Below are positions 10,873 to 39,757 of a stretch of DNA of 39,757 bases, in pieces. The notes beneath the pieces were generated by a model. The model was not told the origin of the DNA. It searched no databases and saw only the letters and a list, made by a program, of their open reading frames with translations. Source of the stretch: Acidimicrobiia bacterium (lineage in GTDB: Bacteria > Actinomycetota > Acidimicrobiia > Acidimicrobiales > Bin134); contig VYDF01000198.1 of assembly GCA_009843565.1 (NCBI GenBank), positions 1 to 39,757 on the forward strand, given 5' to 3'. Each line of letters opens with the position of its first letter. The stretch's first letter is position 1. Made by a program: the position numbers and the translations under genes.

Positions 10873-10873
10873 C

Positions 10874-11971: not shown

Positions 11972-12026
11972 TGGGTTGACGCTCCCTCGTTTCGCTTGCG
12001 CCTAAATCTTGGCAGACTGCGGGAAG

Positions 12027-22200: not shown

Positions 22201-23028
22201 CTAGGCGAAGACCTCGGCGTCCTCAAGGTAGCCAGATGCCTCGGTGATCTTCACCACACCGTCAAGCTCCAGCGGGGCAGTCATCCCTTTGCGGGCGTAC
22301 CACTCGCGAATCAAGGCAGGGCCATCGGTGACCAGCCCGAGGTGGAGGGAGATAACCATCAATGCGGCATCCTCAGCCTCTTGGCTTCCACCGGCCACAA
22401 TGTCGCCGGGCACGATGACCCGAAAATCTCGATTGGCGGCGTCAAAGGCAGTGGAGATTACGCAGGCATCGGTCATGGTGCCGGTGAGAACCAGGTTCTT
22501 GATGTCGAGTTGACGGAGTAAGAACTCGAAATCGGTGGGGACGAAGGCGGAGAGGCGCTTCTTGGTGCGGACGTAGTAGTCGCCTTCTTCCTCCTCGACC
22601 ATGATGTCGAGCCATTTGGTGCCTTCCCAGCTGTGCTGGTCCATCATCGGGTTTGGCGGCAAATACAGCTCGTATAGAACCCGCCAATTGGCCATGCGGT
22701 TGTACTGCTTGGAGTTCAGGTCGTCGATCCCGCCGTAGCGCTGCCAGTGCTGGACGTGGATAATCGGGATACCGACCGCCCGCGCCATACGGTGAAACAT
22801 GTTGTGAGCGGGGATCTTGGCCCGGGCCCGGGGACAAGGACAGGACAGCACTTCTTCGGGTCCAATGTGGCCGCGGTGCATGTCAATGCAGGCGATGGCT
22901 GTCTTGTCGGGGTCGAGCCAGCGATCGAATGCATCCTCGAAGTTGCTGGTGCCCGAAGGCAAAACGACGCGATCTCTACCGTCCAGATAGGCATACATCT
23001 CGGTCTTCATTGGTGGCTCGGCTTTCAT
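22201..23028 (-). CDS. isochorismatase-family cysteine hydrolase with internal insertion
   Basis: AIACIDMH (Asp), KKRLSAF (Lys) and LTGTMTDACVISTAFDA (Cys) form the D-K-C triad pattern. The start is uncertain (ATG 23028, 23010 or 22998). The track start at 23190 would overlap the upstream L gene and is rejected. Confidence 0.7.
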   Translation of the reverse strand: MKAEPPMKTEMYAYLDGRDRVVLPSGTSNFEDAFDRWLDPDKTAIACIDMHRGHIGPEEVLSCPCPRARAKIPAHNMFHRMARAVGIPIIHVQHWQRYGGIDDLNSKQYNRMANWRVLYELYLPPNPMMDQHSWEGTKWLDIMVEEEEGDYYVRTKKRLSAFVPTDFEFLLRQLDIKNLVLTGTMTDACVISTAFDAANRDFRVIVPGDIVAGGSQEAEDAALMVISLHLGLVTDGPALIREWYARKGMTAPLELDGVVKITEASGYLEDAEVFA

Positions 23029-23101
23029 TTGACTGGCTGGGTGGGCCAGAGATTCTACCGTCGTGAATTTAATCGCAATGGCAGATGAGCGCCACCAACA
23101 C

Positions 23102-25396
23102 CTAAGAGTGGTTCTGCGCTTCGAGCTGGTTGAGCACCCAATCGGGAGTGATCGGCAGGGTGCCGACCGCGCCGGGAGCGCCGAGCGCATGGCCTACTGC
23201 GGCAGCGATCGCACCGCCCGCACCGGCAATTCCGGCCTCGCCCGCCCCTTTAGCGCCCAATGGGTTCGTCGGCGTGGGGGCGTTTTCGAGAATCGCTGTC
23301 TCGATCGGCGGCAATTCGGCCGCGGTAGGGAGCAGGTAGTCCATGAAGTTGGCCGACTGGGGCTGGCCCCGCTCATCGAATGCGAACTCTTCGAGCAAGG
23401 CGCCCCCCAAGCCCTGGGCGAAACCTCCGAGCACCTGGCCTTCGACAAGCTGGGGGTTGACGGCCCTGCCCACTTCGCACCCCAGCCACACCCTATGCAG
23501 CCGCACTTGCCCCGTCTCTGCGTCGAGCGAGGCATCCACCACCACCGCTCCGTAGGGGTAGTTCATCCGCTCATCGATTCCGATCTCGCGAGCCCCGAGG
23601 CCGGGTTCCTCACCGCGGTCGGCTGATTCAAGCGTCCCGCACGCTTCGGCTATCTGGCCGAGGGTCAGCGTCCTTGCCGGGGCTCCGGCTACGTGTACCA
23701 GGCCATCGGCCAGGACCAGATCGTCGGTGGCGGCTTCGAGCAGGTCAGCGGCGATCCTCTTGGCCTTGTCGGCGGTGTGGCGGGCCGCGGCTTGCACGGC
23801 GACGCCGCCGATCACCGTCGAGCGGCTGGACCACGAACCCACCCCGTCGGGGATCAGGTCCGAGTCGCCGTAGATGACTTGTATTTGGGCCGGGTCAACT
23901 CCCAGCTCGTCGGCGGCGATCTGAGCCATCACGGTTTCGATGCCCTGGCCTGATGATGCTCCCCCGATGAACACCCGGACCGCCCCGGTGGTATCGATGT
24001 CCACTGCTCCCGTCTCGTAGAGGCCGAGCCCGCTCTTGTCCATGAAGACCGACAGGCCTACGCCCCGGTGATCCCCGTTCTCTGGCGCAAGTTCGCTATT
24101 CCACTGGGCGAGCTTCGCTCCCGCTTGGTCGATCAGCCCGATGAAGTCGCCGGAATCGAGTATGAACGACTCACCGGCCAGCTGGAACCCGGGCTCGTAG
24201 GGCAATTCGTCGGACGTGAGCAGGTTCCTCCGGCGGACTTCGGCCGGGTCGAGGCCGAATTCGACCGCGGCGACGTCCAACAGCTGCTCTCGGGCCACGG
24301 TCAGCTCGTAGCGGCCCGGCGCCCTATACGGACCCACCGGGGTCTTGTTGGTGGTGATGACATGGATCTTCGATGCGTAGGCGGGCAGTCGATAGGGCCC
24401 GGGGATCATTCCCAAGGTGAGTTCGGAGACAATCACACCGGTGGGGCGGATGTAGGCGCCCTTGTTGTGCCACACTTCCGCCTCAAGGCCAAGCAGGCGC
24501 CCATCGGTATCGAAGGCGGCCCGCAGAAGGTGGGTTTGCTCGCGGGCGTGGTTTGTGGTGGTGAGGTTCTCGGCCCGGTCCTCGATCCATTTGACCGGAC
24601 CGCCGGTGAGGATTGCGGCGTAGGCAACCAGAAAGTCCTCGGGAAAGAAGTCGCCGCGGACTCCGAAGCTCCCACCGGCATCGGTGGAGCGCATGTGAAT
24701 GCTGGCTGGCCGACGCGAAAGCAGGCGGGCCAGGACCTGTCGGTGATAGTGCGTGACGAGTGTCGCGCCCCAAACCGTGAGTTGGTCGCGGCCGGGGTCG
24801 AAGTCGCAGACCAGCCCTCTCGTCTCGAGCGGTACGCCGGAGTGGCGGCCGATCGAGACTTCCGTGGTCAACACCCGTGCCGCTTGGTCAAATGCGGACG
24901 CAATGTCGCCGTATCCCTTCTCCAGGACACAGATCTCGTTCGACGAGTCAGCCCAGAGAGACAGTTCGTCAGGGGCGCGGCGCATATCGACTACGGCATC
25001 GAGCGGGTCGATGTCGACGACCACCGTCTCGGCAGCATCCTCAGCCAGATACGGATCTTCGGCGAGAACAATTGCCACCGGTTCACCCACGTAGCGAACC
25101 CGGTCTTGAGCCAATACCGGTTGCAGTGCTCGTTCCAACCCGAGGCCGTCGAAGGGCAGCCGGAGCGGAATGGGCTCGACATGGGCGACATCAGCGCCGG
25201 TGAGCACCAAACGGACGCCGGCCATGGCCTCAGCTGCTGAAGTGTCGATCCCCACCACTTGACCGTGGGCATAGGTTGAGCGCACCGCCCTCATCCACAG
25301 TTGGCCGGGCAGATCGACGTCGTCGACAAATCGACCCGCACCACGCAAGAGACGAGGGTCTTCAAGTCGAGGTATGGAAGCCCCTACATTTCCCAT
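23102..25396 (-). CDS. molybdopterin-binding large subunit, xanthine dehydrogenase family (no adjacent M/S genes)
   Basis: MGNVGASIPRLEDPRLLRGAGRFVDD, YVGEPVA, AGGSFGVR, EVGRAVNP, AKGAGEAG. 764 aa. GGGAG SD. Confidence 0.9.
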   Translation of the reverse strand: MGNVGASIPRLEDPRLLRGAGRFVDDVDLPGQLWMRAVRSTYAHGQVVGIDTSAAEAMAGVRLVLTGADVAHVEPIPLRLPFDGLGLERALQPVLAQDRVRYVGEPVAIVLAEDPYLAEDAAETVVVDIDPLDAVVDMRRAPDELSLWADSSNEICVLEKGYGDIASAFDQAARVLTTEVSIGRHSGVPLETRGLVCDFDPGRDQLTVWGATLVTHYHRQVLARLLSRRPASIHMRSTDAGGSFGVRGDFFPEDFLVAYAAILTGGPVKWIEDRAENLTTTNHAREQTHLLRAAFDTDGRLLGLEAEVWHNKGAYIRPTGVIVSELTLGMIPGPYRLPAYASKIHVITTNKTPVGPYRAPGRYELTVAREQLLDVAAVEFGLDPAEVRRRNLLTSDELPYEPGFQLAGESFILDSGDFIGLIDQAGAKLAQWNSELAPENGDHRGVGLSVFMDKSGLGLYETGAVDIDTTGAVRVFIGGASSGQGIETVMAQIAADELGVDPAQIQVIYGDSDLIPDGVGSWSSRSTVIGGVAVQAAARHTADKAKRIAADLLEAATDDLVLADGLVHVAGAPARTLTLGQIAEACGTLESADRGEEPGLGAREIGIDERMNYPYGAVVVDASLDAETGQVRLHRVWLGCEVGRAVNPQLVEGQVLGGFAQGLGGALLEEFAFDERGQPQSANFMDYLLPTAAELPPIETAILENAPTPTNPLGAKGAGEAGIAGAGGAIAAAVGHALGAPGAVGTLPITPDWVLNQLEAQNHS

Positions 25397-25426: not shown

Positions 25427-26950
25427 TTACGAGACCCCCACCGGACTTCCGGCCATGGCCAAGGCCAGGTCATCCATATCCAGCTCGTCCACATCCCGCT
25501 CCAGCACAACCCGCCCCCGATACATCACCGCCACGCGGTCGCTGAGCTTTAGCAGCTCATCGAGGTCCAAAGACAGAAGGAGCACGGCCGCGCCCGCCTC
25601 TTTGACTTGGAGGAGTCGGCGGTGAACGTAGTCCACCGCGCCAACGTCGAGTCCCCATGTGGGATTGTCGGCAATGAGGACCTTTGGGTTCCGCGAGAAT
25701 TCGCGGGCTAACACAACCTTCTGCTGATTGCCGCCGGAGAGGGAGCCGGCCATAAGGCCTGAATCAGCGGGCCGAACGTTGTATTCCTCCAACAAGGCGT
25801 CGGATTGTCGCCGGATTCGCTTCCAGTCGAGGAGTCCCCGACGGCTGAACTTGCCCGCGGGGATCTCGTTGATGGCCAGGTTCTCGGCCAGGGTCATGTC
25901 CAGAATCAGCCCCCAGCCGTGGCGGTCTTCAGGAATGACGGCCAAGCCGCTGTCGCGTAGACGAGCCGGCTCGGAGCCAGTCATGTCCATGCCGTCAATC
26001 CGCACAGTGCCGGACTCGAGGTGGCTAAGCCCGGTGATGGCGTTGACGACATCGCGCTGTCCGTTTCCCTCCACTCCGGCGATCCCAAGAATCTCACCGG
26101 CCCGGACCGACAGGCTCAACCCGTCAAGGGAATTGCCCCCCACCCCAGTTGTGGCCAGATCGCTTACTTGGAGTATGGCGTCGACGTCGTCTTCCAACGA
26201 CGTGTGGTCCACCTTGATGGTGCTGATCTCCCTGCCGGTCATCGCCCTGGTGAGGGTGCGTTCATCGAACTCTCCCCGTTCTACCTCTGCCACCTTCTTG
26301 CCGGCGCGAATCACGGTGACTCGGTCCGCCACCTGCGTGACTTCGGCCAGCTTGTGGGTGACCAGCACAATCGAATGCCCGCGAGAGCGCAGATCTTCCA
26401 AGATGCTCAGCAAATTCTCGATTTGCTGGGGCCCGAGCAGCGATGTCGGCTCGTCGAGAATCAGGATGCTGGCCCCGCGATAGAGAACCTTCAGGATCTC
26501 AACCCGTTGCTGAAGGTCGACCGGGAGATCGCGGACCGGAGTCGATGCCGGCATTGGCATTCCGAATTTGTCGGCCAGCGCGGTGATCTCACGACGAACG
26601 GCCAGGGGCTTGAGGCGCAGGTCTAGGACCGGGCGCGATCCGAGCACGATGTTCTGCGCCACCGTGAACGTGGGGACCAGTGAGAAGTGCTGGTGCACCA
26701 TCCCGATGCCCAGCGCGAGGGCGTCATGGGGGGATGTGATTTCGGCAGGCTTCTCTCTGACCAAGATGGAGCCGGAATCGGGCAGGACATGGCCGAACAT
26801 GACGTTCATCAGCGTGGTCTTGCCGGCGCCGTTCTCACCGAGCAGGACATGGATCTCGCCGGCCCGCAGGTCGAAGTCGATGCCATCGTTGGCTTGAACA
26901 TCGCCGAAGCGCTTGGAGATGCCCCGGAGTTCTACAACCGTCTCAACCAC
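25427..26950 (-). CDS. ABC transporter ATP-binding protein, duplicated ATPase (BMP/sugar-type importer)
   Basis: Two ABC halves. Walker A is GENGAGKTT, signature LSGGNQQK, Walker B ILILDEPT / LIADNPT. GTG start overlaps the stop of the upstream M24-like gene by 8 nt. Confidence 0.9.
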   Translation of the reverse strand: MVETVVELRGISKRFGDVQANDGIDFDLRAGEIHVLLGENGAGKTTLMNVMFGHVLPDSGSILVREKPAEITSPHDALALGIGMVHQHFSLVPTFTVAQNIVLGSRPVLDLRLKPLAVRREITALADKFGMPMPASTPVRDLPVDLQQRVEILKVLYRGASILILDEPTSLLGPQQIENLLSILEDLRSRGHSIVLVTHKLAEVTQVADRVTVIRAGKKVAEVERGEFDERTLTRAMTGREISTIKVDHTSLEDDVDAILQVSDLATTGVGGNSLDGLSLSVRAGEILGIAGVEGNGQRDVVNAITGLSHLESGTVRIDGMDMTGSEPARLRDSGLAVIPEDRHGWGLILDMTLAENLAINEIPAGKFSRRGLLDWKRIRRQSDALLEEYNVRPADSGLMAGSLSGGNQQKVVLAREFSRNPKVLIADNPTWGLDVGAVDYVHRRLLQVKEAGAAVLLLSLDLDELLKLSDRVAVMYRGRVVLERDVDELDMDDLALAMAGSPVGVS

Positions 26951-28103
26951 AGCGAATCAGCTCCCTCGGGTGCTTTTGGGTCACCTCAACTCCGTCGGGA
27001 CGAAGCCACATTGAGTCTCCCACTTGGACGCCTGCTCGTGCCGAAAGGTCGATGACATTGGGCTGAACAACCAGGACCGTGCCGTCGGGATAAGACCAAT
27101 CGTCGGGATGGGTGGCACCGCGATTTGAACGGGTGCGAACAATGGGGGCCAGATAGCCGCCGCCGCCGTAACAATGCACGAGATCGTCCCAGATGTCGAA
27201 ACCCGCTTGGTGTATGGACTCGGCTCGGTCCAATACCTCACCGATTGTCGTCCCAGTGCGCATAGTGCTCACAATGCTGGAGTATGTGTTCTCTGCTACT
27301 TCGTACATCTCCTGGTAGAGCGGCGTGGGTTCCCCCTCGATACAGAGTGTTCTCAGGATCTGTCCGGTATAGCCCCAAAAGGTGGTGCTGATCTCGGTCA
27401 CCAAAATGTCTCCGGATTGGATAAGCCGGTCGGGCTGGTATTGGTGGGGCACGAAAAACTCCGGATTAGCCATGGAAGTGGTGAGGGTGAAGTGGATGAG
27501 GTTGGTCCCGCGGCGATCGAGATAGACGCTCTCGATCACCTTGGCCAGCTCGTACTCGTTCATCCCCGGTGTGGCATGTGACGCCAGCGCCGCCACGGCG
27601 TCGTCATTCATGCTGGAGGCGATGCGGACGTACTTCATCTCCTCTTCGGTCTTAGTCTGGCGAATGGCGTAGTAGTCGGCGTTGAGATTGACCAGGCGCT
27701 CTGACCCGAAAGCGGCCGCGTCGGTGTAGGGGACCACACCTATTGTGCCGATGCGGCGGTACCCGTTGAGGCGCTCGGCCACGCGGGCTACCAGATCTGA
27801 ATGATCGTCGCCGCCGAAGCTGATGTTCTCAATGGTTGAGATTCGCTCGGCGTCAGGAATGTGATTCCAGAGCCGAACCACCATTTCCGGGTCGGCGTCG
27901 CGGGGCACGATCAAATACACCGGGAACAGCGGCGGCCAGTTGCAGTAGTACTGGACCGACGTGTCGTGAGGCCCCGTGGCCCCGCCGATCAAAACAGCAT
28001 CGAGGTCATCGCGTTCCATGAGCTCTCGAAGCTGGCGATAGCGACTAGCCATCTCCTCGGGTGAGTATCTCGGGTAACCGTTGACTTGCGGGATCTCATC
28101 CAT
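26943..28103 (-). CDS. M24-fold (creatinase/prolidase-like) protein lacking most canonical metal ligands
   Basis: The Creatinase_N-like N-terminus and pita-bread C-domain are alignable by eye to the M24 enzyme at 2702..3922. Ligand positions instead read VTEIS, GYTGQILRT, VHCYGGGG, VVQPN and VQVGD, against FIDIG, FADIGRT, IGHGIG, AVEPL and RIEDMV. Confidence 0.7.
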   Translation of the reverse strand: MDEIPQVNGYPRYSPEEMASRYRQLRELMERDDLDAVLIGGATGPHDTSVQYYCNWPPLFPVYLIVPRDADPEMVVRLWNHIPDAERISTIENISFGGDDHSDLVARVAERLNGYRRIGTIGVVPYTDAAAFGSERLVNLNADYYAIRQTKTEEEMKYVRIASSMNDDAVAALASHATPGMNEYELAKVIESVYLDRRGTNLIHFTLTTSMANPEFFVPHQYQPDRLIQSGDILVTEISTTFWGYTGQILRTLCIEGEPTPLYQEMYEVAENTYSSIVSTMRTGTTIGEVLDRAESIHQAGFDIWDDLVHCYGGGGYLAPIVRTRSNRGATHPDDWSYPDGTVLVVQPNVIDLSARAGVQVGDSMWLRPDGVEVTQKHPRELIRCG

Positions 28104-30264
28104 TGATGGCCCTCCAGATCTTCTCGGGGGAGAGGGGCATATCGAGATGTTCTACACCCCATGGTGCCAAAGCGTCGAGAACCGCGTTGTGGACCGCCGG
28201 TGTCGTCCCGATGGTGGTGGCCTCGCCGATGCCCTTGACGCCCAGCCTGTTCAAAGGCGTTGGCGTCACCATGCTGTTGATTTCATAGGAGGGCAGCTCT
28301 CGGGCCGAGGGGGCGAGATATTCGAGCAGTGTCGACGTCATGGGTTGTCCATCGGCGGCGTAGGCCAACTCCTCCCATAGGGCTTGGGCCGCTCCCTGGG
28401 CGATCCCACCGTGCTGTTGGCCTTGGGCGAGCATGGGGTTGATGACGTTGCCGCAATCGTCAACGGTGATATGGCGGATCATCCGCACCGCTCCGGTTTC
28501 GCGATCGACCTCGACAACCGATATGTGCGAACCCGACGGATATGTCCGGGCCCCTTGATCGAAATCGAATTCCACCGCCAACGGTGCCAGGTCTGCCCAA
28601 CCGATCGCGGTGGCGGGGCTGCCAATGATGCCGACCCCGACACCTTCGTAAATGACCATGTCGGCGGTATTGGCCTCCAAACGCTCAGCTGCCAGCACGC
28701 AGGCCTGTTCCACAACTGCTCTTGCCGCCTCGTCGACGGCGCTGCCGGCCAACTGGAGTGAACGCGAGCCATAGGTTCCATTTCCACGGGGAACGACGCC
28801 GGTATCCGACTGGACAACGCGGACCTTGTCTATCGGCAGGCCCAATTGGGCGGCGGCGATCTGGGCGTACGTGGTCTGGTGGCCTTGACCCTGAGACGAA
28901 ACACCGCAGAGAACGGTGGCGCTTCCATCCAGTTCGATGGCGACGGAGGCAAACTCCTCCGTGGGTCCGTTACCGGTCACCTCGATGTAGCTGGAAACAC
29001 CGATTCCCAGGAGCCACTGGTCGCCTCGGGCCCGACGCAGGGACTGCTCCTGACGCAGTGACTCATAACCGGCCAACTCGGCGACTCGGTCAAGAGTCCC
29101 GCGATAGTTGCCGGAGTCGTACACCGCGCCGCTGGGGGTGACGTGGTCGGTGCTGTGACTCTCGAGAAGGTTGCGCCGTCGGAGCTCAACCGGGTCCATT
29201 TGGAGCTCACGAGCCAACAGATCCATCGACCGCTCGAGGAAAGCAGTGGCCTCCGGCCGCCCCGCTCCTCGGTATGCGCCAACCGGTGCCGTGTTCGTCA
29301 CCATGCTCCGTGCTCTGAAGTCAACCCGGGGGATGCGATACGTCCCTGTGCACATAAGCCGGGTGTAGTTGGGGAGCCAAGCGCCGACATGAGGGTAGGC
29401 GCCGGCATCGGCAATCACTTCGACTCGGATGCCGGTGATCGTTCCGTCTCGTTTGGCGCCTAACGCAACCCGTTGAATTTGGCCCCGTCCGGGAGTCATA
29501 TTGAGCAGATTCTCGGAGCGGGTCTCCTGCCAGGCCACCGGCTGGCCGGTTCGATGGGCGATTGCCGCCACCACGATGTGCTCGGGATAGGTATGGCCCT
29601 TGGCCCCGAATCCTCCCCCCACTGCTGGGGCGATCACCCGAACGCGGTTCGGATCGAGATTCAGAGCAGCAGCAACAGACGCCTGGTTGTCCCACGGAAA
29701 CTGCGTGGAGACCCAAATGCACAAGCCGGCGCCATCGTCGTCGGGCACAACCAGGATGCTGTTGGTCTCCAAGGGCACCGGAGCCAGCTTCTGATTGACA
29801 AACGCGGCCTCGACGACCACCTCGGCGTCCTCGAGCGCAGAGGGATCCACCAGCGGCTCGACTTCGAACGCCACTTCACTGCTCTCCTCGGCCGAGACCA
29901 CGGCGGGGAGTGATTCGATCTCCACCTCCACGTCACCGGCGAGATCCTGGGCTTCAGCAAAGCTCCTGCCGGTGACGACGGCGATCGGGTCTCCGACATA
30001 TCGAATCTTGTCCACCACCAGTAGATCTCGCGCGTACCGGTCGGGAGTTGGTGGCCACGGCACGAGCTTGGGCAACTCCAGCGACGCAGCGGTGTATAGG
30101 CCGGGGCTGCCGATCACGCTCACGAGCTTGCCGTGGGCAACGGGGGAGCGGATGAAGCAGGAGTGAAGCGTGTCGCTGGTGATGAGGTCGGCGGTGAACG
30201 GCTGGTTGCCGGTCAGCAGGCCATCATCCTCGACGCGTAAAACGGAATTGCCAAGGATGCTCAA
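28096..30264 (-). CDS. molybdopterin-binding large subunit, xanthine dehydrogenase family (no adjacent M/S genes)
   Basis: MSILGNSVLRVEDDGLLTG, YVGDPIA, VGGGFGAK, GAYRGAGRPE, DCGNVINP, VKGIGEA. 722 aa. TTG start. Its 3' end overlaps the M24-like start by 8 nt. Confidence 0.9.
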   Translation of the reverse strand: MSILGNSVLRVEDDGLLTGNQPFTADLITSDTLHSCFIRSPVAHGKLVSVIGSPGLYTAASLELPKLVPWPPTPDRYARDLLVVDKIRYVGDPIAVVTGRSFAEAQDLAGDVEVEIESLPAVVSAEESSEVAFEVEPLVDPSALEDAEVVVEAAFVNQKLAPVPLETNSILVVPDDDGAGLCIWVSTQFPWDNQASVAAALNLDPNRVRVIAPAVGGGFGAKGHTYPEHIVVAAIAHRTGQPVAWQETRSENLLNMTPGRGQIQRVALGAKRDGTITGIRVEVIADAGAYPHVGAWLPNYTRLMCTGTYRIPRVDFRARSMVTNTAPVGAYRGAGRPEATAFLERSMDLLARELQMDPVELRRRNLLESHSTDHVTPSGAVYDSGNYRGTLDRVAELAGYESLRQEQSLRRARGDQWLLGIGVSSYIEVTGNGPTEEFASVAIELDGSATVLCGVSSQGQGHQTTYAQIAAAQLGLPIDKVRVVQSDTGVVPRGNGTYGSRSLQLAGSAVDEAARAVVEQACVLAAERLEANTADMVIYEGVGVGIIGSPATAIGWADLAPLAVEFDFDQGARTYPSGSHISVVEVDRETGAVRMIRHITVDDCGNVINPMLAQGQQHGGIAQGAAQALWEELAYAADGQPMTSTLLEYLAPSARELPSYEINSMVTPTPLNRLGVKGIGEATTIGTTPAVHNAVLDALAPWGVEHLDMPLSPEKIWRAING

Positions 30265-30275
30265 CTAGAGAGTGC

Positions 30276-31643
30276 TCAGCTCGGCGGCACATAGGCGATC
30301 AGGTCCATGAGGAACTGGGCGCCGGGTACTTGAAGTGGCCCGCCGATCTCCAGAGTTGTCGACGCGGGCCGATCACCGGGGAAGTAGCTGGCCCACTGTT
30401 CGATGGACTGCTGGAAATGGGTGAAGTCGTCGTGGAAGCACTGGCGTCTCACGATGTTCTCCACGCTGGTGCCAGCCGCCTCGCAGATAGCCGAGACGTT
30501 GTCCATGATGTAGGCCATCTGGAGTTTGGGAGGTTGCCCGTACCACGGGAACTCCGGATGGCGCTGGACCGACGCAGGCAGGTTGCCGAGTTCGTCATAG
30601 GCAATGGCGGTGCTGAAGAACAGGAAATCGCCCGCTTTGACGGCCTGAGGCTCGTGCCACGGCGGCTGAACGGCATCAGAGGTCTCTATCGTCTCTATTT
30701 CGATCGAAGCATCGTCGGCCAAGACCTTGAGGGCGATCTCGATACGGCTTCCCTTGCCGCCCAGCCCCATGTAGGGAATCACCACGCGGGCCGGAGGGTT
30801 CTCGGGGAACCACTGCTTCCAAACTCTTTCCATTCCGGCAAAGTCGCCCGGGCTGGCCAGATACACGGTGGCCTTCACGGTGTTCCGGATCGAACCACCG
30901 GCGGCCTGGACGATCTTCTCCAGTTTCTGGAGGACGTATTCGGTTTGGCTCTCTATCTCCGATCCGTACCAGTAATACGGATTGACCCGAGCTTCGGGGG
31001 CGATGCCGCTGGGGGTGCCCATGTCCTTGTCCTGGAGGTAGTCGCCCATCCAGTCGACGGGAATCTCTCCGGCGCAGAAGATCCAGTCGCCCCGCCGAAT
31101 GGCCGGCGAATAGCCGGCCAACGGCGACGGGACGCCCTCGGGGACTTCGAAGCCCTCGCTGCCGCCGCCAGGGATGGCGATCATGTCGACTTCGAGGATG
31201 GTCTTGTTCACAAGCAGCCCGGTTTCGCGGATGCCCATTCCGGTTGAGGCCGGCCGCGGCGGGTGCACATACTCGTCGCGAGTCCGCAGATACGGGGTGA
31301 TGCTGATCTTGGGCCAGGAGTTGCCCTCCCAGAATTCGTCGATGGTCGGATGGGGAGAGGAGAACCACTGGTAGATCCGCACGATGTCGGTGGCAATGTC
31401 GCAGCCCGCTGCCTCCAGGGTCATTTGGAGGTTTTGCAGCACAAAGTGAGATTGAAGCTCGAGGGCGTCGTATCCGTTGGGGTTGCGACCGTCACCGCCG
31501 GCCTCGGGCGCGAGACCCGTCACGAAATCCGACGCCAACTGTCCGGCTACAAAGACCCATCCACCGGCCTTGATTGCGGGACTGTAGGGCATGAGGGGTT
31601 TGGGCTCACCGCCCCATACGGCAACGCGATCGTTCTCAGCCAT
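30276..31643 (-). CDS. protein composed of three tandem RidA/YjgF/L-PSP-like domains
   Basis: 455 aa. Three repeats each start with a Y/A-x-x-A-[IV]-[KR]-x-G-[GD]-[WF]-[VIL]-F and end with a [VI]E[VI]-type strand. D1 is ~aa 15-157 (YSPAIKAGGWVFVAGQ...RPASTGMGI...LEVDMIAI). D2 is ~aa 175-309 (YSPAIRRGDWIFCAGE...PPARVVI...IEIALKVL). D3 is ~aa 330-453 (PQAVKAGDFLFFST...RPASTTLEI...LMDLIAYV). ATG 31643 has an AGGAGAGG SD. Confidence 0.75.
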   Translation of the reverse strand: MAENDRVAVWGGEPKPLMPYSPAIKAGGWVFVAGQLASDFVTGLAPEAGGDGRNPNGYDALELQSHFVLQNLQMTLEAAGCDIATDIVRIYQWFSSPHPTIDEFWEGNSWPKISITPYLRTRDEYVHPPRPASTGMGIRETGLLVNKTILEVDMIAIPGGGSEGFEVPEGVPSPLAGYSPAIRRGDWIFCAGEIPVDWMGDYLQDKDMGTPSGIAPEARVNPYYWYGSEIESQTEYVLQKLEKIVQAAGGSIRNTVKATVYLASPGDFAGMERVWKQWFPENPPARVVIPYMGLGGKGSRIEIALKVLADDASIEIETIETSDAVQPPWHEPQAVKAGDFLFFSTAIAYDELGNLPASVQRHPEFPWYGQPPKLQMAYIMDNVSAICEAAGTSVENIVRRQCFHDDFTHFQQSIEQWASYFPGDRPASTTLEIGGPLQVPGAQFLMDLIAYVPPS

Positions 31644-31739
31644 GATGTCCTCTCCTGTTCAACTTTCGTTGTTGTTCGATGTTCCTATGGTCGTGGGGGG
31701 TCGCGACGGCAAGCACTTGGCGCATTTTCGTAGAACTTA

Positions 31740-33080: not shown

Positions 33081-34013
33081 TCACGCCCGACCTGCCGCCT
33101 CCCGCCGCCACGGGATGCCCACCGCTGCCGGATACCGGCTGCCTCGCGACAACAACACGGCGAGCACGGTCGCGACATAGGGCAAAGCCAGCCAGACCTG
33201 GCTGGGAACGCCTTCGGTCAGGTCCACCCGGCCGGCAACGAACTGGAGGGCCTGGCTGAGACCGAACAATGCCGATACGGCGAGCGCCCAGAACGGGTTC
33301 CATCGGGCAACCACCACCACGCCAAGGGCGATGAAGCCGCGGCCTTCGGTCATGCCCGGCACAAATCCGCCAGCCGAAGACATAACCAGGGCGCCCCCGC
33401 CTAGCGCCGCCAATCCGTTGGCCAGGATCACAGCCGGATAGCGCAAACGCTGCACGTCGAGCCCGCCGGACTCGGTGGCATGAGGTCGCTCGCCCGCGGC
33501 CCGGGCGTACAAGCCCCACCATGTGCGATATATCAGATAGAAGACGAGGACAACGATGGCCAGAGTGATCCAGAACATGGCGTCCTGTCCGTTGAGCACG
33601 TCACCGACCTTGGGAATATCGCCGAGAAGGGGGACGTCCAACGGCGAAAGCGTTGGTCCGATCTGGCCGCCGACGAATCGGTCGTCCAGCAACCCGGTGA
33701 GACCGAGCGCGAACACATTGAACAGAAGGCCGGTCACGATCTGATCTGTGCCCCGGTAGACGTAGAGGAACGCCAAGATCACCCCGGCGCCCATCCCGGT
33801 GATCCAGCCTAGGACCAGTGCCAGCGTGACGCTCTCGGTATTGATTCCCACCAGCGCGGTGATGAGCGCCCCGATCAGCATCGATCCCTCGATGCCCACA
33901 TTGAGGACGCCGCTACGCTCGGAAATGGTCTCGCCCAGTGCCGCCAGCAATATCGGCACCATCAACTGCAAGCCAGTGGCGAAGAAGGCGATGACGACGG
34001 CTTCGGTTGGCAT
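33081..34013 (-). CDS. ABC transporter permease (BMP/ribose-type, branched-chain-AA-transporter-like fold)
   Basis: 310 aa, highly hydrophobic multi-TM. Its start shares one base with the stop of the upstream permease gene (TGATG). Confidence 0.85.
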   Translation of the reverse strand: MPTEAVVIAFFATGLQLMVPILLAALGETISERSGVLNVGIEGSMLIGALITALVGINTESVTLALVLGWITGMGAGVILAFLYVYRGTDQIVTGLLFNVFALGLTGLLDDRFVGGQIGPTLSPLDVPLLGDIPKVGDVLNGQDAMFWITLAIVVLVFYLIYRTWWGLYARAAGERPHATESGGLDVQRLRYPAVILANGLAALGGGALVMSSAGGFVPGMTEGRGFIALGVVVVARWNPFWALAVSALFGLSQALQFVAGRVDLTEGVPSQVWLALPYVATVLAVLLSRGSRYPAAVGIPWRREAAGRA

Positions 34014-35098
34014 CAGTCGCTCACGTTCTGGGCGTAGCGGAATCGGATGACTCCGGTGACCATCAGCAAGATCACGAAAACGGCAACGATGATGTCACCC
34101 AACGAGGGAGATATATCCGCGGAGGCTTGCAGGCTGTTGCTCCCCACCCGCAGCATTGCGAACAAGAAGGCAGCCGGAATGATCATCGGGGGTTTCAATC
34201 TGGCCAGTAGCGCCACGGCAATGCCAATGAATCCGTAGTTGCTGGAAAAGTTGATGTCGAGATCGTCGAAGATTCCGGCGACGGCAACCCCGCCGGCCAG
34301 TCCGGCAAACCCGCCAGCCACCATGAAGGTAAGCAAGGTCACCTGCTTGGTCCGGACCCCGGCCAGTCGGGCGGTGTTGACGTTGGCCCCGATCGCTCGA
34401 ATGGAAAAGCCAAGCGATGTCTTGGCCATCAAGAGCCAGGCCAGGGCAGCCGCCAACACGGCGATGACCACGCTGATGTCGACGGTAGCGTCCTTCCAGA
34501 TCACCGGGAATTTCGCGTTCTCGGCTATCGAGATGGTCTTCTGGCTAAAGGGGTCGGGCCAGACCTCGGAAATTATGTAGTTGGCGATGAACACGGCGAC
34601 AAAGCTCAACATCAGCGTCGTAACGATCTCGCTCGCGCCGTAGAAGGCTTTGAGGGCGCCGGGGATAAGGCCCCAAATCGCTCCACCGATAAACGAGCCC
34701 AGGATGACGATGACGACGAACAGTGGTCTTGGGGTGCCAGACGGCAATTCGATTCCCAGGAATACCGCAGCGATTGCGCCGGCGAACATCTGGCCTTCGC
34801 CCCCGATGTTCCAGAGTCTCGACGTAAACGGCAAGGCAGCAGCCAGTCCGGTGAGCGCCAGAATGGCGCCGATCATGAGGGTCTGCCCAAGGAAGAACGG
34901 CTCGATAAGCGACCCTTCGATGATTGCCTTGGCCGCCTCCCATGGATTGGCTCCGATGGCCAGGATCAGCACGGCAATGAGGACGAGGGTGAGAATCAGC
35001 GAATAGATGGTGTTGACATAGGCAGGCAGCTCTGAGCCGGTGGACAGCCTCCACCAAGGTCGCGCCGGTTGCCCGATTTCGTCGGCTTGGCTCACCAA
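34013..35098 (-). CDS. ABC transporter permease (BMP/ribose-type)
   Basis: 361 aa multi-TM. TTG 35098 or GTG 35095 start directly after GGGGGGAG. First gene of the minus-strand string. Confidence 0.85.
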   Translation of the reverse strand: MVSQADEIGQPARPWWRLSTGSELPAYVNTIYSLILTLVLIAVLILAIGANPWEAAKAIIEGSLIEPFFLGQTLMIGAILALTGLAAALPFTSRLWNIGGEGQMFAGAIAAVFLGIELPSGTPRPLFVVIVILGSFIGGAIWGLIPGALKAFYGASEIVTTLMLSFVAVFIANYIISEVWPDPFSQKTISIAENAKFPVIWKDATVDISVVIAVLAAALAWLLMAKTSLGFSIRAIGANVNTARLAGVRTKQVTLLTFMVAGGFAGLAGGVAVAGIFDDLDINFSSNYGFIGIAVALLARLKPPMIIPAAFLFAMLRVGSNSLQASADISPSLGDIIVAVFVILLMVTGVIRFRYAQNVSD

Positions 35099-35184
35099 CT
35101 CCCCCCGCTGTCAGTAGGCGGGAGACTAGCCGCGACTCTTGAACTTCGCTCAAAATGGTCGGCCACCGGGGACGGCAATTCCGG

Positions 35185-35197
35185 GGTACGTGGTACC
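35185..35197. promoter_or_regulatory. palindrome GGTAC-N3-GTACC in the divergent control region between the transporter operon and the cupin operon
   Basis: ggtacgtggtacc, read directly. It lies in the ~130-bp region from which both the 13-kb minus-strand string and the plus-strand cupin/nitrilase/Mo-hydroxylase string must be transcribed. Confidence 0.2.
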
Positions 35198-35230
35198 GTT
35201 CGGCTCATAGAGGACATCCGGCGTGAACAG

Positions 35231-35596
35231 GTGCAAGTAGTCCGAGCCTCGGAGCCCGGGCCGGTTTTGCCTGTCGTTGAGACTGGTGGATCGTCACGTG
35301 CCGTGGTGTGGCCTGGATCGGGGGCGCAGCAGCGATCCTTGCACCTCATAAACCTCGATCCCGGTGGGCGCACCGTTGATCTGAGCCATGGCTCGGAATG
35401 CGTGTACCACGTCTCAGCCGGTTCCGGAACCATGGTCGATCTCGATACCGACGAGAACCACGAGGCCATAACCGGATCTATGTTCCTCATCGAGCCGGGA
35501 ACGAACTACCAGTTCACCGCGGGGCAGCAAGGGGCTGTCCTCGTGGGAGGGCCCTGTCCTCCCGATCCTGCGCTCTACAAGCATCTAGGAGATTGA
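35231..35596 (+). CDS. cupin-domain protein, paralogue of the next gene with partly degenerate metal site
   Basis: Aligns by eye along its full length with 35600..35974 (VVWPG...LDPGG...VGGPCPPD). The proposed GTG at 35231 gives the same N-terminal length as the paralogue. The track start at 35069 overlaps the divergent permease. Cupin motif positions read DLSHGSE and EPGTNY, against PHAHSESE and PMGVKH. Confidence 0.55.
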   Translation: MQVVRASEPGPVLPVVETGGSSRAVVWPGSGAQQRSLHLINLDPGGRTVDLSHGSECVYHVSAGSGTMVDLDTDENHEAITGSMFLIEPGTNYQFTAGQQGAVLVGGPCPPDPALYKHLGD

Positions 35597-35599
35597 ACA

Positions 35600-35974
35600 A
35601 TGGCGATCAAGCAATTCCACCGAGACAAGCCCGACCACTACATGCCATTGATCTCCAAAGACGCCCGCCTCGTGGTTTGGCCCGGGGTGGGCTCTGAGAT
35701 GGCGAACATGAACTACGTCGTGCTCGAGCCCGGTGAGGAGAACGTTCCCCATGCTCATTCCGAGTCGGAAGACACAATCTTCATTCTCGAGGGTCGCGGG
35801 TCGGTCGCTGATCTCGACAACGACTGTGTGCTCGAGTTCCAAGCTGGCGACACAGTTCATGTGCCCATGGGGGTCAAGCACGCGGTTCGGGCTGACCGCG
35901 GCAGCCGGATCGTGAGCGTCGGCGGGCCATGCCCCCCTGACAGATACTTGCTCGAACTGTGCGGCGCCCTGTGA
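35600..35974 (+). CDS. cupin_2-type metal-binding protein
   Basis: Canonical cupin motifs G-x5-HAH-x3-E (GEENVPHAHSESE) and G-x5-P-x-G-x2-H (GDTVHVPMGVKH). AGGAG SD 9 nt upstream of ATG 35600. Confidence 0.75.
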   Translation: MAIKQFHRDKPDHYMPLISKDARLVVWPGVGSEMANMNYVVLEPGEENVPHAHSESEDTIFILEGRGSVADLDNDCVLEFQAGDTVHVPMGVKHAVRADRGSRIVSVGGPCPPDRYLLELCGAL

Positions 35975-36825
35975 CGCGGCCTGTCACCATCGGGCTGGCC
36001 CAGATGGGCAGCCCACCCGGAGACGCCGGAGCAAACCGAGCAGCGACAGCCGAAGCGGCAAAGCTGCTGTTCGACCAGGGGGCCCAATTGATCGTACTGC
36101 CCGAGTTGGCTGTGCCCTGGTACACGGTGGACCCAGATGAGGTCGCCCTTACAGCCGAGTCCCTAACCGGGCCAACCGTTGATGCTTGGACTGCGGTCGC
36201 GGCCGATCACTCGGGGATCATCGTTGGGGGTCTCTGCGAACGCGATGGCGAAGCGTTCTACAACACCGCAGTTGTCGTCGACCAAACCGGGGTCATCGGC
36301 CATTATCGCAAGCTGCACCTGTTTGCCGAAGAGAAGTTGTCATTCACGCCGGGTGACCGTGGCCTTCCGGTGGTCGATACCCCAATGGGGCGATTGGGCT
36401 TGTGCATCTGTTACGACCTGCGATTTGTCGAAGTAGTCAGGGTGCTGGCGCTGTCGGGCGCCGAACTCATCTGTGTACCCACTGCTTGGATCACTGGCTT
36501 TGACACGGCGCGTTGGAACGCGGAGGGCCTCTCTACCCAGGCGCAGGGTGCCGTGTTGCAAGCGAAGCTGAGCCAGGTCTTCATCGCCTGTGCGAGCCAG
36601 GTGGGAGTGTTCCCAGGCTTTGACTTTCTGGGATCGTCCGTGGTGGTGGACAGCTTTGGCGAAGTGGTCGCCGGTCCACTTCCCGGAACCGAGGACGAAT
36701 TGCGAATTGTGACCATCGACCTCGCCGACGTGCAGCGGGCAGAGGCCCGAGGAACGCTGATCAGGCCCCGAGCCGACCGTCGCACCGATGTCTACGGTCT
36801 GTCGTACGACGGCACAGTGTTGTGA
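35959..36825 (+). CDS. carbon-nitrogen hydrolase (nitrilase superfamily) protein
   Basis: E-K-C triad context: LIVLPEL, HYRKLHLF, LGLCICYDLRF. Start is GTG 35959 or in-frame GTG 35971; the latter overlaps the cupin stop as GTGA. Its 3' end overlaps the next gene as GTGA. Confidence 0.8.
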   Translation: MRRPVTRPVTIGLAQMGSPPGDAGANRAATAEAAKLLFDQGAQLIVLPELAVPWYTVDPDEVALTAESLTGPTVDAWTAVAADHSGIIVGGLCERDGEAFYNTAVVVDQTGVIGHYRKLHLFAEEKLSFTPGDRGLPVVDTPMGRLGLCICYDLRFVEVVRVLALSGAELICVPTAWITGFDTARWNAEGLSTQAQGAVLQAKLSQVFIACASQVGVFPGFDFLGSSVVVDSFGEVVAGPLPGTEDELRIVTIDLADVQRAEARGTLIRPRADRRTDVYGLSYDGTVL

Positions 36826-37664
36826 AGCCGGCAGCTTTCCACTACGAGCGGCCCCATGATGTAGCCGAAGTCCTGGATCTTCTGGCCGAGCACGGCGATG
36901 AGGCCAAGATCCTGGCTGGCGGGCAGAGCTTGGTCCCGATGATGAATTTCCGCCTGGCCCGGCCTGAAGTCATCATCGACATCGGGGTGGTTCCCGGCCT
37001 CGATCACCTGGTCACCCACGAGGAGTACGTTGCCATTGGAACCCGGGTGCGTCACATCGAACTGGAGCAACCCGCTACCGACGGGCCGCTGGGTTCGATA
37101 TTGGCCGACGCGGCAAGACACGTCGGCCATCTCCCTATCCGCTTGCGGGGCACGTTCGGCGGCTCCATCGCCCATGCTGATCCCGCCGCGGAGTGGTGTC
37201 TTTTGGCCCAAACGCTGAATGCCGATGTTGTTGTCGCATCCACTCGCGGAGAACGGATGATCGCGGCCGCTGACCTATTCCAATCGGCGTTCGTTACTTC
37301 CATTGCCGACGATGAACTGCTTACTCAAGTGCGTTTGCCCTGTTTGGATTCCGACTGGAAGACCGGGTTCTCCGAATTCAGCCGCCGGGCCGGTGACTTT
37401 GCCGTGGTTGCTGTGGCCAGTGCAGTCAGGCTCGTAGATGGCCGGATCGCCGAGGCCCGGATCGGCGCGGCAGGGGTGGGGGCGATACCCGTTCGCTTGT
37501 CCCAAACTGAGATGATGTTGGTCGGTCACCCGCTGGGCCCTGAAACCATCGACGCCGCCTCTGAGGTTGCCGGCGGCGAAGTCGACCCCCGCGGTGACAT
37601 CCACGGATCGGCTGACTATCGCCGCGATCTCGTACGTGCTCTGACTCGTCGAGCGCTTTCGTGA
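36822..37664 (+). CDS. FAD-binding medium subunit of xanthine-dehydrogenase-family molybdoenzyme
   Basis: MKPAAFHYERPHDVAEVLDLL...ILAGGQSLVPMM...SADYRRDL. 280 aa. GTG start. Confidence 0.85.
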   Translation: MKPAAFHYERPHDVAEVLDLLAEHGDEAKILAGGQSLVPMMNFRLARPEVIIDIGVVPGLDHLVTHEEYVAIGTRVRHIELEQPATDGPLGSILADAARHVGHLPIRLRGTFGGSIAHADPAAEWCLLAQTLNADVVVASTRGERMIAAADLFQSAFVTSIADDELLTQVRLPCLDSDWKTGFSEFSRRAGDFAVVAVASAVRLVDGRIAEARIGAAGVGAIPVRLSQTEMMLVGHPLGPETIDAASEVAGGEVDPRGDIHGSADYRRDLVRALTRRALS

Positions 37665-39757
37665 CTCTGACCGATCCCTGGGTTGGGCGTTCAATTCGTC
37701 GTGTCGAGGATCCCGCCCTCGTTCGCGGTGACGGTCGGTATGTCGGCGATGTGGCGATCGGGATGGAGACGGCGCGGTTCATCCGCAGCACTTCAGCCAC
37801 GGGAGTGATCCGATCCATCGACGGGCCCTGTTACACGGCGGCCGATCTCGACGCGGCCGGTGTCGGCGAGATCGAGGCTGTTATTCACCGACCGGACTTT
37901 GTAAATGTTCGACAACCTTTGCTGGCCCGCGACCGAGTGCGTTACGTAGGCGAGCCCATCGCCGTTGTGGTGGGTCGATCGCCGGAAGAGGCCGAAGACC
38001 TAGCTGAGCAGGTCATTGTTGAGTTGGATCTTGACGACGAAGCACTGGTCCACCCTGGCAATGGCGATACCAATGCGGTCATTGAGGCGGAGTTTGCCAC
38101 CGAGGACATCGAAGAAGCCCTCGACCATGCCGATCATCTCGTGGAAGTTGTGCTCACATCTCATCGACAAGCCGCGTTGCCCCTCGAGACGCGGGGAGCC
38201 ACCAGCGAGTTCGACCGGCGAACCGGACGTCTAACAATCCACGCGTCCACGCAGGCTCCCCACATTGTCCGCACCGCCATAGCCGATCTTCTTTGCATCC
38301 CCGAGGCTGACATCCAGGTCGTCGCCCCCGATGTGGGCGGCGGATTCGGCCAGAAGCTGCCGCTGGCCCGTGAAGATGTGGTGGTGGCATGGCTGGCCTT
38401 GCAGCGGCGGGGGAGCGTGGCCTGGATCGAGGATCGTTCGGAGAACCTCACCTCGTCATGGCACAGCCGGGATCAGGTGTATCGGGTAAAGGGTGGCTTC
38501 AGCACCGACGGCGACCTCGTGGCGATCGACGCAGACATCTCCTGCGACGTGGGGGCGTGGTCGTGCTATCCGTTTACCTGGGGGGTGGAACCCCTGATGG
38601 CCATGGGCGAGATGTGCGGGCCCTACAAGGTGGCCCACTACCGGGTTCGAACCCGAGGGGAAAGTAGTTTTACCTGCCCAGTCGCGCCTTACCGTGGAGT
38701 CTCCCGTCCGGCGATCACCGCCTCGCTGGAACGGCTGATGGACACCGCAGCACGTCGCTTGCGGATCGATCCTGGGGAGATCCGCCGCCGAAACTTGGTG
38801 ACCGACTTTCCCCACACCACGGTGACCGGTGCTGTTTTGGATGCGGGCACCTATGTGGAGTCGCTCGACGCGGCGCTCGAGCACTTCGACTTGGATGAGT
38901 TTCGGGATCGCCAGACAGCGGCCCGTGACCGCGGCAGTCCCCTGCTCGGAGTCGGGATTTCCACGTTTGCGGAGCGGACGGGATACGGCACGCCCGTGTT
39001 CGCCACTCGGGCAATGGGGGTGACACCCGGATATGAGATGGTCACCATGAAAATGGATCCATCCGGATATGTCGAAGCGGCCATCGGCGCATCACCGCAC
39101 GGTCAAGGATTAGAGACAACGCTGGCGCAGGTCATTGCTGATCAACTGGCCATCGATGTTTCCCGAATTCGCATTGTCCACGGCGACACCGACCGCGCCC
39201 CCTATGGCTGGGGCACTTTTGCCAGCCGCTCCTTGGTGATAGCCGGTGGCGCCGTCCAAATCGCGGCGGGACATTTGAGAGACCGGTTGGCGGAAGTGGC
39301 GGCGGCGGTGCTCGAAGCCAACGCTGACGACATCGTCTTTGCCTCTGGTCGGGTGACCGTGGCCGGGACGGACGTCGGGGTTCCTATCGCGGAGTTGGCG
39401 CGGATCGCGCACCACCACACCGAGCGCCTCGAACCGGGCACTCCGGCCGGGCTGGCGGTAGAGGCCTCCTACGATCCTGTGGGCACGTTCTCGAACGCGT
39501 GTCACATTGCCGAGGTGGAGATCGACCCCGAAACCGGCGCGACTACCGTGAAGCGGTTCGTCGTCGCCGAGGATGCGGGCCGGTTGATAAATCCGATGAT
39601 CGTCGATGGACAAATCCGCGGCGGTGTGGCGCAGGGAATAGCGAACGCGCTGTTCGAAGAGGTCGTATACGACGACGACGGGAACATATTGACTTCGACG
39701 CTCATGGACTACCTGCCGCCCACCGCGGCCGAGATTCCCGATATCGAGATTCGGCAC
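37661..39757 (+). CDS. molybdopterin-binding large subunit, xanthine dehydrogenase family, 3'-truncated by window end (missing from supplied ORF track)
   Basis: I translated it by hand. GTG at 37661 overlaps the M-subunit stop as GTGA, followed by 699 stop-free codons to the window end. Sequence: VTLTDPWVGRSIRRVEDPALVRGDGRYVGD..., YVGEPIA, VGGGFGQK, APYRGVSRP, SPHGQGLETT, AEDAGRLINP. Confidence 0.85.
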   Translation, partial: MTLTDPWVGRSIRRVEDPALVRGDGRYVGDVAIGMETARFIRSTSATGVIRSIDGPCYTAADLDAAGVGEIEAVIHRPDFVNVRQPLLARDRVRYVGEPIAVVVGRSPEEAEDLAEQVIVELDLDDEALVHPGNGDTNAVIEAEFATEDIEEALDHADHLVEVVLTSHRQAALPLETRGATSEFDRRTGRLTIHASTQAPHIVRTAIADLLCIPEADIQVVAPDVGGGFGQKLPLAREDVVVAWLALQRRGSVAWIEDRSENLTSSWHSRDQVYRVKGGFSTDGDLVAIDADISCDVGAWSCYPFTWGVEPLMAMGEMCGPYKVAHYRVRTRGESSFTCPVAPYRGVSRPAITASLERLMDTAARRLRIDPGEIRRRNLVTDFPHTTVTGAVLDAGTYVESLDAALEHFDLDEFRDRQTAARDRGSPLLGVGISTFAERTGYGTPVFATRAMGVTPGYEMVTMKMDPSGYVEAAIGASPHGQGLETTLAQVIADQLAIDVSRIRIVHGDTDRAPYGWGTFASRSLVIAGGAVQIAAGHLRDRLAEVAAAVLEANADDIVFASGRVTVAGTDVGVPIAELARIAHHHTERLEPGTPAGLAVEASYDPVGTFSNACHIAEVEIDPETGATTVKRFVVAEDAGRLINPMIVDGQIRGGVAQGIANALFEEVVYDDDGNILTSTLMDYLPPTAAEIPDIEIRH

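Follow-up and report, generated by a model that had tools for sequence, protein, structure and literature searches.

The stretch of DNA analysed here (the window) comprises the 39,757 nucleotides (nt) at positions 1 to 39,757 of contig VYDF01000198.1, from the assembly GCA_009843565.1 of an Acidimicrobiia bacterium. A gene located on its minus strand, at 30276..31643, starts with ATG and encodes a protein of 455 amino acids (aa) that carries three Rid/YjgF modules on a single chain and is referred to below as 3x-RidA. As read from the sequence, it is preceded by a strong ribosome-binding site, the Shine-Dalgarno motif AGGAGAGG (31649..31656, minus strand), which lies 5 nt before the ATG. The sole Pfam family found on the protein is PF01042 (Ribonuc_L-PSP, the Rid family), with 144.8 bits over three stretches; this profile places the protein within the Rid/YjgF/L-PSP superfamily, and the NCBIfam scan gave 132.8 bits for TIGR00004 (cut-off 106.25). 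An initial annotation had proposed three YjgF modules on this open reading frame (ORF), at residues 15-157, 175-309 and 330-453, which should be recognized by three non-overlapping profile matches. Such matches were obtained: with each third of the protein scanned by itself, PF01042 gives 36.9, 77.2 and 42.6 bits, all above the gathering cut-off of 27.3, and the limits drawn from Pfam and DSSP (~13-157, 172-309 and 333-451) agree with those proposed.

The modules are encoded on the minus strand at 31173..31607 (module 1, aa 13-157), 30717..31130 (module 2, aa 172-309) and 30291..30647 (module 3, aa 333-451). They are mutually homologous in profile-profile comparisons based on 33 homologues (E=4.5e-18 for modules 1 and 2, 2.6e-16 for modules 1 and 3, 3.1e-17 for modules 2 and 3) and, in each of them, the loop that joins strand 2 to helix 1 is enlarged and shows the common signature APEA..NP..(W)YG. 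Module 1 carries, in addition, a conserved insertion (aa ~97-125). The mutual homology and the common loop signature point to an origin of the chain in the triplication of a single Rid domain that was derived already, rather than in a fusion of unrelated paralogues.

A word-indexed homologue search returned 980 matches at E<=1e-5, the best 120 of which are all full-length (441-489 aa, 62-93% identity) and annotated merely as "RidA family". Judging by these 120 homologues, the gene is real and under selection. Column identity averages 69% in the alignment of 33 homologues, where many polar residues are invariant across phyla. An exhaustive search of representatives at 50% identity recovered 147 of them at E<=1e-30, most being 400-470 aa long and 30-58% identical. 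Proteins of this type are common in bacteria. They were found in Actinomycetota (Acidimicrobiia, Thermoleophilia/Solirubrobacterales, Microbacterium), in Alphaproteobacteria (Afifellaceae, Acetobacteraceae, Beijerinckia, Planktomarina), in Halieaceae and in Pantoea. The window itself belongs to a lineage of Acidimicrobiales that is associated with sponges ('Candidatus Poriferisocius'), and its closest relative is 99% identical. A search of plasmids with tblastn (E<=1e-20) gave no match and therefore no link to a known catabolic plasmid.

The three-domain fusion, which had been presented as possibly novel, is not new: besides the 147 representatives mentioned above, the architecture has had a name since 2015. 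The term "3x-RidA" was introduced by Niehaus et al. 2015 (BMC Genomics 16:382), who gave EF_0115 of Enterococcus faecalis V583 as an example and described these proteins as "presumably covalently linked trimer units", without function, context or residue analysis. In literature searches on triple or tandem RidA and on the composition of the cluster, this paper was the only one found to use the term, and no assigned function was found. The window protein fits the description and is, by its architecture, a member of this named, uncharacterised class. By description, it resembles EF_0115 in having three Rid domains on one chain; it belongs to an asymmetric Ser/Arg/Ser branch.

Predicted fold and structural relatives

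The AlphaFold2 model, computed from a 33-sequence alignment, is one compact body (mean predicted local distance difference test score, pLDDT, 91.5; predicted template modelling score, pTM, 0.93) in which the succession strand-strand-helix-strand-helix-strand-strand is repeated three times. When compared with the PDB by Foldseek, its top matches are the chorismatases 5ag3, 5a3k and 4bps (E 2e-11 to 5e-10), which align over 404-412 columns with a target-normalised template modelling (TM) score of 0.63-0.65 and 9-13% identity. The next matches are many single RidA chains, each covering one module, with a TM of 0.82-0.89. The repeated pattern and these matches correspond, in the prediction, to a chorismate-mutase-like fold with three units around a threefold axis and, with the best match at E 2e-11, to a three-lobed single-chain fold of the chorismatase kind. 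The model thus supports the earlier proposal that the three Rid modules, which have diverged, would form a covalent pseudo-trimer whose clefts are not equivalent, given its high pTM, the close superposition of RidA chains and the ~410 chorismatase columns aligned.

Chorismatases are reportedly single chains of YjgF-like units with pseudo-threefold symmetry, so that a covalent pseudo-trimer of this fold has solved precedents. FkbO, Hyg5 and XanB2 (4bps, 5a3k, 5ag3) share three YjgF-like units on one chain with the window protein and are its best whole-chain structural match; they differ from it by their very low identity, the lack of a sequence-profile match, a length shorter by ~120 residues, and another genomic context and substrate. 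In a profile search of the PDB, no solved structure with three Rid domains was found, since only Rid chains of ~125 aa matched, and neither chorismatase nor AtzD/barbiturase chains appeared at E<=10. Likewise, the NCBIfam scan at E<=1 revealed no models besides those of Rid proteins, and hence no membership of a chorismatase family at the sequence level.

Residue asymmetry and cleft pairing

The arginine of RidA is essential for imine hydrolysis (PMC4433059). In TdcF, the pocket contains Arg105, Cys107 and Asn88 of one subunit, while Glu120 of the neighbouring subunit crosses the interface to residue 107, next to Gly31 (PMC1884159). The RidA residues Tyr17, Gly31, Arg105 and Glu120 have equivalents in module 2 (Y178, G192, R286, E302; Arg286 is encoded at 30786-30788), which is the only canonical module and also the best match of the protein to solved RidA chains. 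A serine occupies the Arg position in modules 1 (Ser133, 31245-31247) and 3 (Ser428, 30360-30362). The alignment (P131-A132-S133, P284-A285-R286, P426-A427-S428) therefore bears out the PAS/PAR/PAS succession that had been noticed at this position. Ser133 belongs to the motif RPASTGMG, invariant among the 33 homologues, and the other canonical residues are substituted in module 3, where His330/Glu331 align with Tyr17, Thr345 with Gly31 and Asp447 with Glu120. The protein has in common with RidA/TdcF/YjgF homotrimers its domain family and fold, the location of the clefts between neighbouring modules and, in module 2, the equivalents of the four residues. It differs from them by its single chain in place of three identical subunits, by the absence of Arg from two of the three clefts, by the enlarged loop of each module and by the extra insertion in module 1.

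This asymmetry extends to much of the family, as examined in 99 three-domain sequences (the query and 98 cluster representatives). At the position of Arg105, a serine is found in module 1 of 73 sequences and an arginine in module 2 of 69, and module 3 is variable (Ser in 27). At the position of Glu120, glutamate is present in 41 sequences for module 1 and in 88 for module 2, and aspartate in 82 for module 3. An arginine in each of the three modules is seen in just three representatives. One of them, P0158, is collinear with the window protein over aa 6-419 (32-35% identity), and symmetry would therefore have been lost after the triplication. A gene of the P0158 type lies ~10 kb from a gene of the Ser/Arg/Ser type in two loci of soil Acidimicrobiia; the Arg/Arg/Arg copies, P0158 or a 75%-identical protein, were observed 8-10 kb from the latter at 21188-21361 of locus L070 and 776-2035 of locus L056. 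A third locus (L071, 9965-13930) carries two three-domain Rid paralogues flanking a gene of the major facilitator superfamily (MFS).

In the same 99 sequences, and without correction for shared ancestry, the residue at each Arg position co-varies with the module that follows, with an odds ratio of 23 for R286 and E331 (p=1e-7), of 10 for S133 and E302 (p=8e-4) and of 3 for S428 and E151 (p=0.013). This co-variation, uncorrected for phylogeny, suggests three non-equivalent clefts and their composition. The R286 cleft would be lined by His330/Glu331, Thr345 and Asp447 of module 3 and would not be a textbook RidA site. A second cleft would be formed by Ser133/Thr134 from module 1 and Glu302 from module 2; it would be conserved, although devoid of Arg. 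The third one appears to be degenerate across the wider family.

The operon and its conserved neighbours

All genes of the operon lie on the minus strand. Upstream of the 3x-RidA gene are two BPD_transp_2 permease genes (34013-35098 and 33081-34013) and the gene of a Bmp/PnrA-type substrate-binding lipoprotein (31803-33005), all of which are conserved beside 3x-RidA in Actinomycetota. Downstream are found the large subunit of a molybdenum (Mo) hydroxylase of the xanthine-dehydrogenase family (28096..30264, 722 aa), an M24 metallohydrolase-like gene (26943..28103), the two-domain ATPase of an ATP-binding cassette (ABC) importer (25427..26950), a second Mo-hydroxylase large subunit (23102..25396, 764 aa) and, at the operon end, an isochorismatase-family cysteine amidohydrolase (PF00857), whose longest ORF is 22201..23190. 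These assignments were made with Pfam and, for the Mo-hydroxylases, also with NCBIfam. The 722-aa subunit gene starts with TTG at 30264, so that the 11-nt gap previously described between it and 3x-RidA is exact. Overlaps of 8 nt occur at several junctions of the operon, including those of the M24 gene with its neighbours. Three enzyme genes (3x-RidA, the Mo large subunit and M24) stand between the ATPase gene and those of the permeases and the binding protein, and are therefore embedded within a transporter operon.

The closest solved relatives of the binding protein are Lbp (7x0r) and AtzT (6pi5), with weak scores of ~80 bits each, and it reaches 85 bits with the B6-type BMP model (cut-off 400). 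Its likeness to Lbp and to AtzT, a binder of atrazine and purines, hints at a substrate resembling a heterocyclic base. After a lipoprotein-like signal and its Cys, this protein contains a repetitive Pro/Ala/Glu linker at aa ~28-65 (…PAAPAPEPAATEAPAPEPEPAATEAPAPEPEPEP…). The hydrolase has the cysteine motif typical of the amidase branch of its family (TDACV), which aligns with the Cys motif of 3hb7; its nearest characterised relatives, RutB, the biuret hydrolase BiuH and N-carbamoylsarcosine amidase, are distant (36-56 bits). Its longest ORF encodes 329 aa and has 89 nt in common with the gene of the Mo subunit upstream. As the Pfam domain begins at residue 97 of this ORF and the homologues have 252-267 aa, the true start probably lies ~60-80 codons downstream, near 22950-23000.

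Comparison of 81 related loci, by tblastn and de novo clustering of the neighbouring genes, showed that, of all neighbour families, that of the two-domain ABC ATPase is shared by the most loci (56 of the 81), together with permease(s) and a binding protein. An importer of the CUT2 type adjoins 3x-RidA in nearly all loci, with a binding protein of the Bmp type in Actinomycetota and of the Peripla_BP_4 type in Proteobacteria. An orthologue of the isochorismatase-family hydrolase (56-93% identity) is present within 10 kb in ~57 of the 63 actinobacterial loci and in 5 of the 16 proteobacterial ones; in 37 loci, it directly adjoins 3x-RidA on the same strand. In Acidimicrobiia and soil actinobacteria, the hydrolase gene comes after that of Bmp and before 3x-RidA, and in Thermoleophilia it comes after 3x-RidA; the displacement of the hydrolase gene by 7 kb, to the operon end, is found only in the genus of the window. 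The conserved partners of 3x-RidA are thus the CUT2-type ABC importer and, in Actinomycetota, also the isochorismatase-family cysteine amidohydrolase. In Proteobacteria, the conserved unit is made of TetR, permease, binding protein, ATPase and 3x-RidA. It is followed by an MFS gene alone (in Pantoea and Beijerinckia, and also in Microbacterium), by a CocE/NonD S15 hydrolase, or by a short-chain dehydrogenase/reductase (SDR) and a luciferase-like monooxygenase. Reductases of the SDR or HIBADH-like type are frequent beside 3x-RidA.

The gene that follows 3x-RidA alternates between a Mo large subunit and an M24 hydrolase. An orthologue of the Mo large subunit occupies this position in 12 of 14 loci of the same genus, in all 18 loci of Acidimicrobiales (~70% identity) and in a few soil loci. 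The Mo-hydroxylase, to which the initial annotation had given a part in the reaction, was thus rejected, as a general rule, as a functional partner: it is a lineage-specific neighbour that follows the gene in some Acidimicrobiia only, its place being taken elsewhere by M24, MFS or S15 genes. Its description as an orphan subunit is half right: no partner genes are adjacent, but genes for flavin adenine dinucleotide (FAD) subunits (17698-18615 and 36822-37664), 2Fe-2S subunits (14922-15404 and 18612-19091) and another two large subunits are found in other parts of the window. The Mo-hydroxylases, the M24 hydrolase, the SDR and the cupin and nitrilase genes would all be lineage-specific additions.

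The cupin and nitrilase genes belong to a divergent operon (35069..39757, plus strand), which comprises two cupin ORFs and the genes of a CN-hydrolase, of a CoxM-like FAD subunit (36822-37664) and of a Mo large subunit (from 37661 onward). In Acidimicrobiia and soil actinobacteria, this operon is conserved along with the cluster. The two adjacent cupin ORFs (35069-35974) encode 175 and 124 aa, the first without a Pfam match; in the soil relative L001 (3910-4782), a single 290-aa Cupin_2 protein occupies this position, and the gene is therefore split or fused according to the lineage. The last gene (37661-39757), a fourth Mo large subunit, runs through 699 codons without a stop and off the window end. 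In the close relative L004, the equivalent gene encodes 763 aa and is followed by a 2Fe-2S small subunit. An Rfam scan of 37600-39200 found nothing, this stretch being part of the Mo large-subunit gene.

The window as a whole is an island densely packed with genes for the catabolism of nitrogen compounds. Its remaining part (1-22200) includes two amidohydrolases, a creatinase-like M24 protein with Creatinase_N, an FAD monooxygenase, a cyclase/formamidase-like gene, two flavoenzymes of the old yellow enzyme (OYE) family, a CocE/NonD S15 hydrolase, DUF1989, an alpha/beta hydrolase, an SDR and a complete Mo-hydroxylase set with FAD, 2Fe-2S and large subunits (17698-21397). The S15 family represented here is the one frequently found beside 3x-RidA in Proteobacteria. 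The island also contains a gene (10874..11971, minus strand) that was described from the outset as a bona fide member of the AtzD family; this assignment is upheld by 429 bits with PF09663 and by 417 bits with NF052395, a model of cyanuric acid amidohydrolase whose equivalog cut-off is 360. It is flanked (10312-13253) by a carboxymuconolactone-decarboxylase-family gene and by an amidase-signature gene that looks truncated (Pfam positions 43-238 of 445). Within the island, this region may represent a branch for cyanuric acid or barbiturate.

Candidate function and significance for the family

The reading favoured here, to which a probability of about 0.5 is given, is that 3x-RidA is an asymmetric, triplicated Rid enzyme with one Arg cleft, which would deaminate an enamine or imine derived from an imported nitrogen compound and would form with the amidohydrolase a pair similar to RutB/RutC. 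The initial idea of an enzyme acting on an enamine or imine intermediate remains in this form the best hypothesis. One Rid-type catalytic cleft is probable because module 2 alone keeps the carboxylate-anchoring R286. The location of the gene in an importer operon and its pairing with a cysteine amidohydrolase make a pathway of import, hydrolysis and deamination likely, and the frequent reductase neighbours are expected if the product is a carbonyl compound. The following model can be drawn. A single Rid domain would have been triplicated internally, after which the chain would have become asymmetric. A nitrogen compound, possibly a heterocycle since the binding protein resembles purine and triazine binders, would be imported by the CUT2-type ABC importer. 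In Actinomycetota, an amide or ureido bond of this compound would then be hydrolysed by the isochorismatase-family cysteine amidohydrolase, and the resulting enamine or imine would be deaminated by 3x-RidA, as by RutC after RutB. In the R286 cleft, completed by residues of module 3, the enamine or imine would be hydrated to give ammonia and a carbonyl product; these residues may modify the chemistry.

As in the Rut system, a pyrimidine pathway, an isochorismatase-family cysteine amidohydrolase is encoded beside a Rid protein within a nitrogen-catabolic and transport operon, with reductases near. Unlike in that system, the RutC model (TIGR03610) gives 89.6 bits for a cut-off of 169.1 and the RutB model 38.9 for 378, and no RutA orthologue was found in the window or in the related loci. 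Orthology of the partners to Rut proteins was therefore rejected: they belong to the same superfamilies, but none of the NCBIfam Rut models comes near its cut-off. This lack of orthology weighs against the deaminase reading, as do three other observations. If the pairing drawn from co-variation is right, the R286 cleft is non-canonical, with Glu for Tyr17, Thr for Gly31 and Asp for Glu120. Thirty of the 99 three-domain representatives are devoid of the module-2 Arg, so that deaminase chemistry would not be universal in the wider family. Finally, the operons of Pantoea, Beijerinckia and Microbacterium encode no other enzyme, but just TetR, the ABC importer, 3x-RidA and MFS; there, 3x-RidA must act on the imported compound or on a species formed from it spontaneously.

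The main rival takes up this last point. The protein would not be an imine deaminase but a hydrolase or lyase with remodelled clefts, acting on the imported compound itself, possibly by protonating and hydrating an enol ether as chorismatases do, or by opening a cyclic imine or amidine, with the Arg serving just as a carboxylate anchor. Its sole presence as an enzyme in the importer operons of several Proteobacteria and of a Microbacterium fits this proposal, as do the rank of the chorismatases among whole-chain structural matches, the invariance of the non-canonical residues predicted in the R286 cleft (His330, Glu331, Asp447) and the conserved insertion of module 1, which could serve as a lid. 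It is nevertheless put at about half the weight of the deaminase, as the identity to chorismatases is as low as 9-13%, no chorismatase model or PDB chain was matched within the thresholds used (E<=1 and E<=10, respectively), no shikimate or secondary-metabolite genes are near, and module 2 is near-canonical RidA in sequence. Less likely still is an accessory role, in which 3x-RidA would be a housekeeping-type Rid protein that mops up imines, or a subunit without catalytic activity that is tied to the transporter and binds the ligand or has a regulatory part. Prevention of metabolite damage, instead of catalysis of pathway steps, is the role of many Rid proteins (PMC4433059), and transporter genes stand beside the gene in nearly all loci while the enzyme neighbours vary; yet the very high conservation (69% mean column identity) and the tight adjacency to one amidohydrolase family in 37 loci count against such a role, and the conserved, co-varying residue sets of two clefts argue for a specific catalysis. 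These two clefts could also belong to a bifunctional enzyme that would use the R286 cleft and the Ser/Thr-Glu cleft for two different steps releasing ammonia from the imported compound, alone or with the cysteine amidohydrolase, a possibility that is likewise given a low probability.

A relationship with AtzD had been suggested from the outset, the protein being viewed as an independent or intermediate case of the YjgF concatenation proposed for the "Toblerone" fold of AtzD and barbiturase; as a related alternative, it could be a ring-opening amidohydrolase of that kind. It is true that Peat et al. 2013 proposed an origin of AtzD by concatenation of three YjgF-like units, a general topology common to both proteins (PMC3758960), that an AtzD gene exists in the same window, and that the isochorismatase-family hydrolase and the AtzT-like binding protein loosely echo AtzT/AtzD/BiuH. 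However, the profile of the 3x-RidA family aligned to the AtzD of the window gave an hhalign probability of 0.1% (E 0.5), PF09663 does not match 3x-RidA, which is thus not placed in the AtzD/barbiturase family, no AtzD or barbiturase chain was matched by sequence in the PDB (E<=10) or figures in the top 50 Foldseek matches, and the AtzD gene is 18 kb away. Moreover, the modules are still recognisable as RidA. AtzD has Ser-Lys dyads in a central barrel, its active site (PMC3758960), whereas the conserved residues of 3x-RidA lie at inter-module clefts, and its pseudo-equivalent conserved positions R89/K257/R400 and S133/R286/S428 do not make a threefold Ser-Lys pattern. The AtzD link was consequently rejected, and such an activity or intermediate status is very improbable.

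What is new here for 3x-RidA is the family-wide asymmetric Ser/Arg/variable pattern, the predicted pairing of the modules into clefts and the stable genomic linkage to CUT2 ABC importers and to a cysteine amidohydrolase. The gain is incremental and not surprising, but it gives a concrete and testable frame to this class, at a time when most of the Rid family is still without known function, and cultured carriers suitable for genetics exist (Beijerinckia sp. L45, Microbacterium sp. CPCC 204701 and a Pantoea). If the bifunctional reading were true, covalent fusion would have let a Rid trimer break its symmetry, and TetR, the ABC importer, 3x-RidA and MFS would constitute a new and widespread "import, deaminate, export" module for nitrogen scavenging in soil, marine and sponge-associated bacteria. 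The substrate of 3x-RidA, if found, would add a step to the bacterial catabolism of nitrogen compounds and would provide a natural example of gene fusion freeing a homo-oligomer to specialise its active sites.

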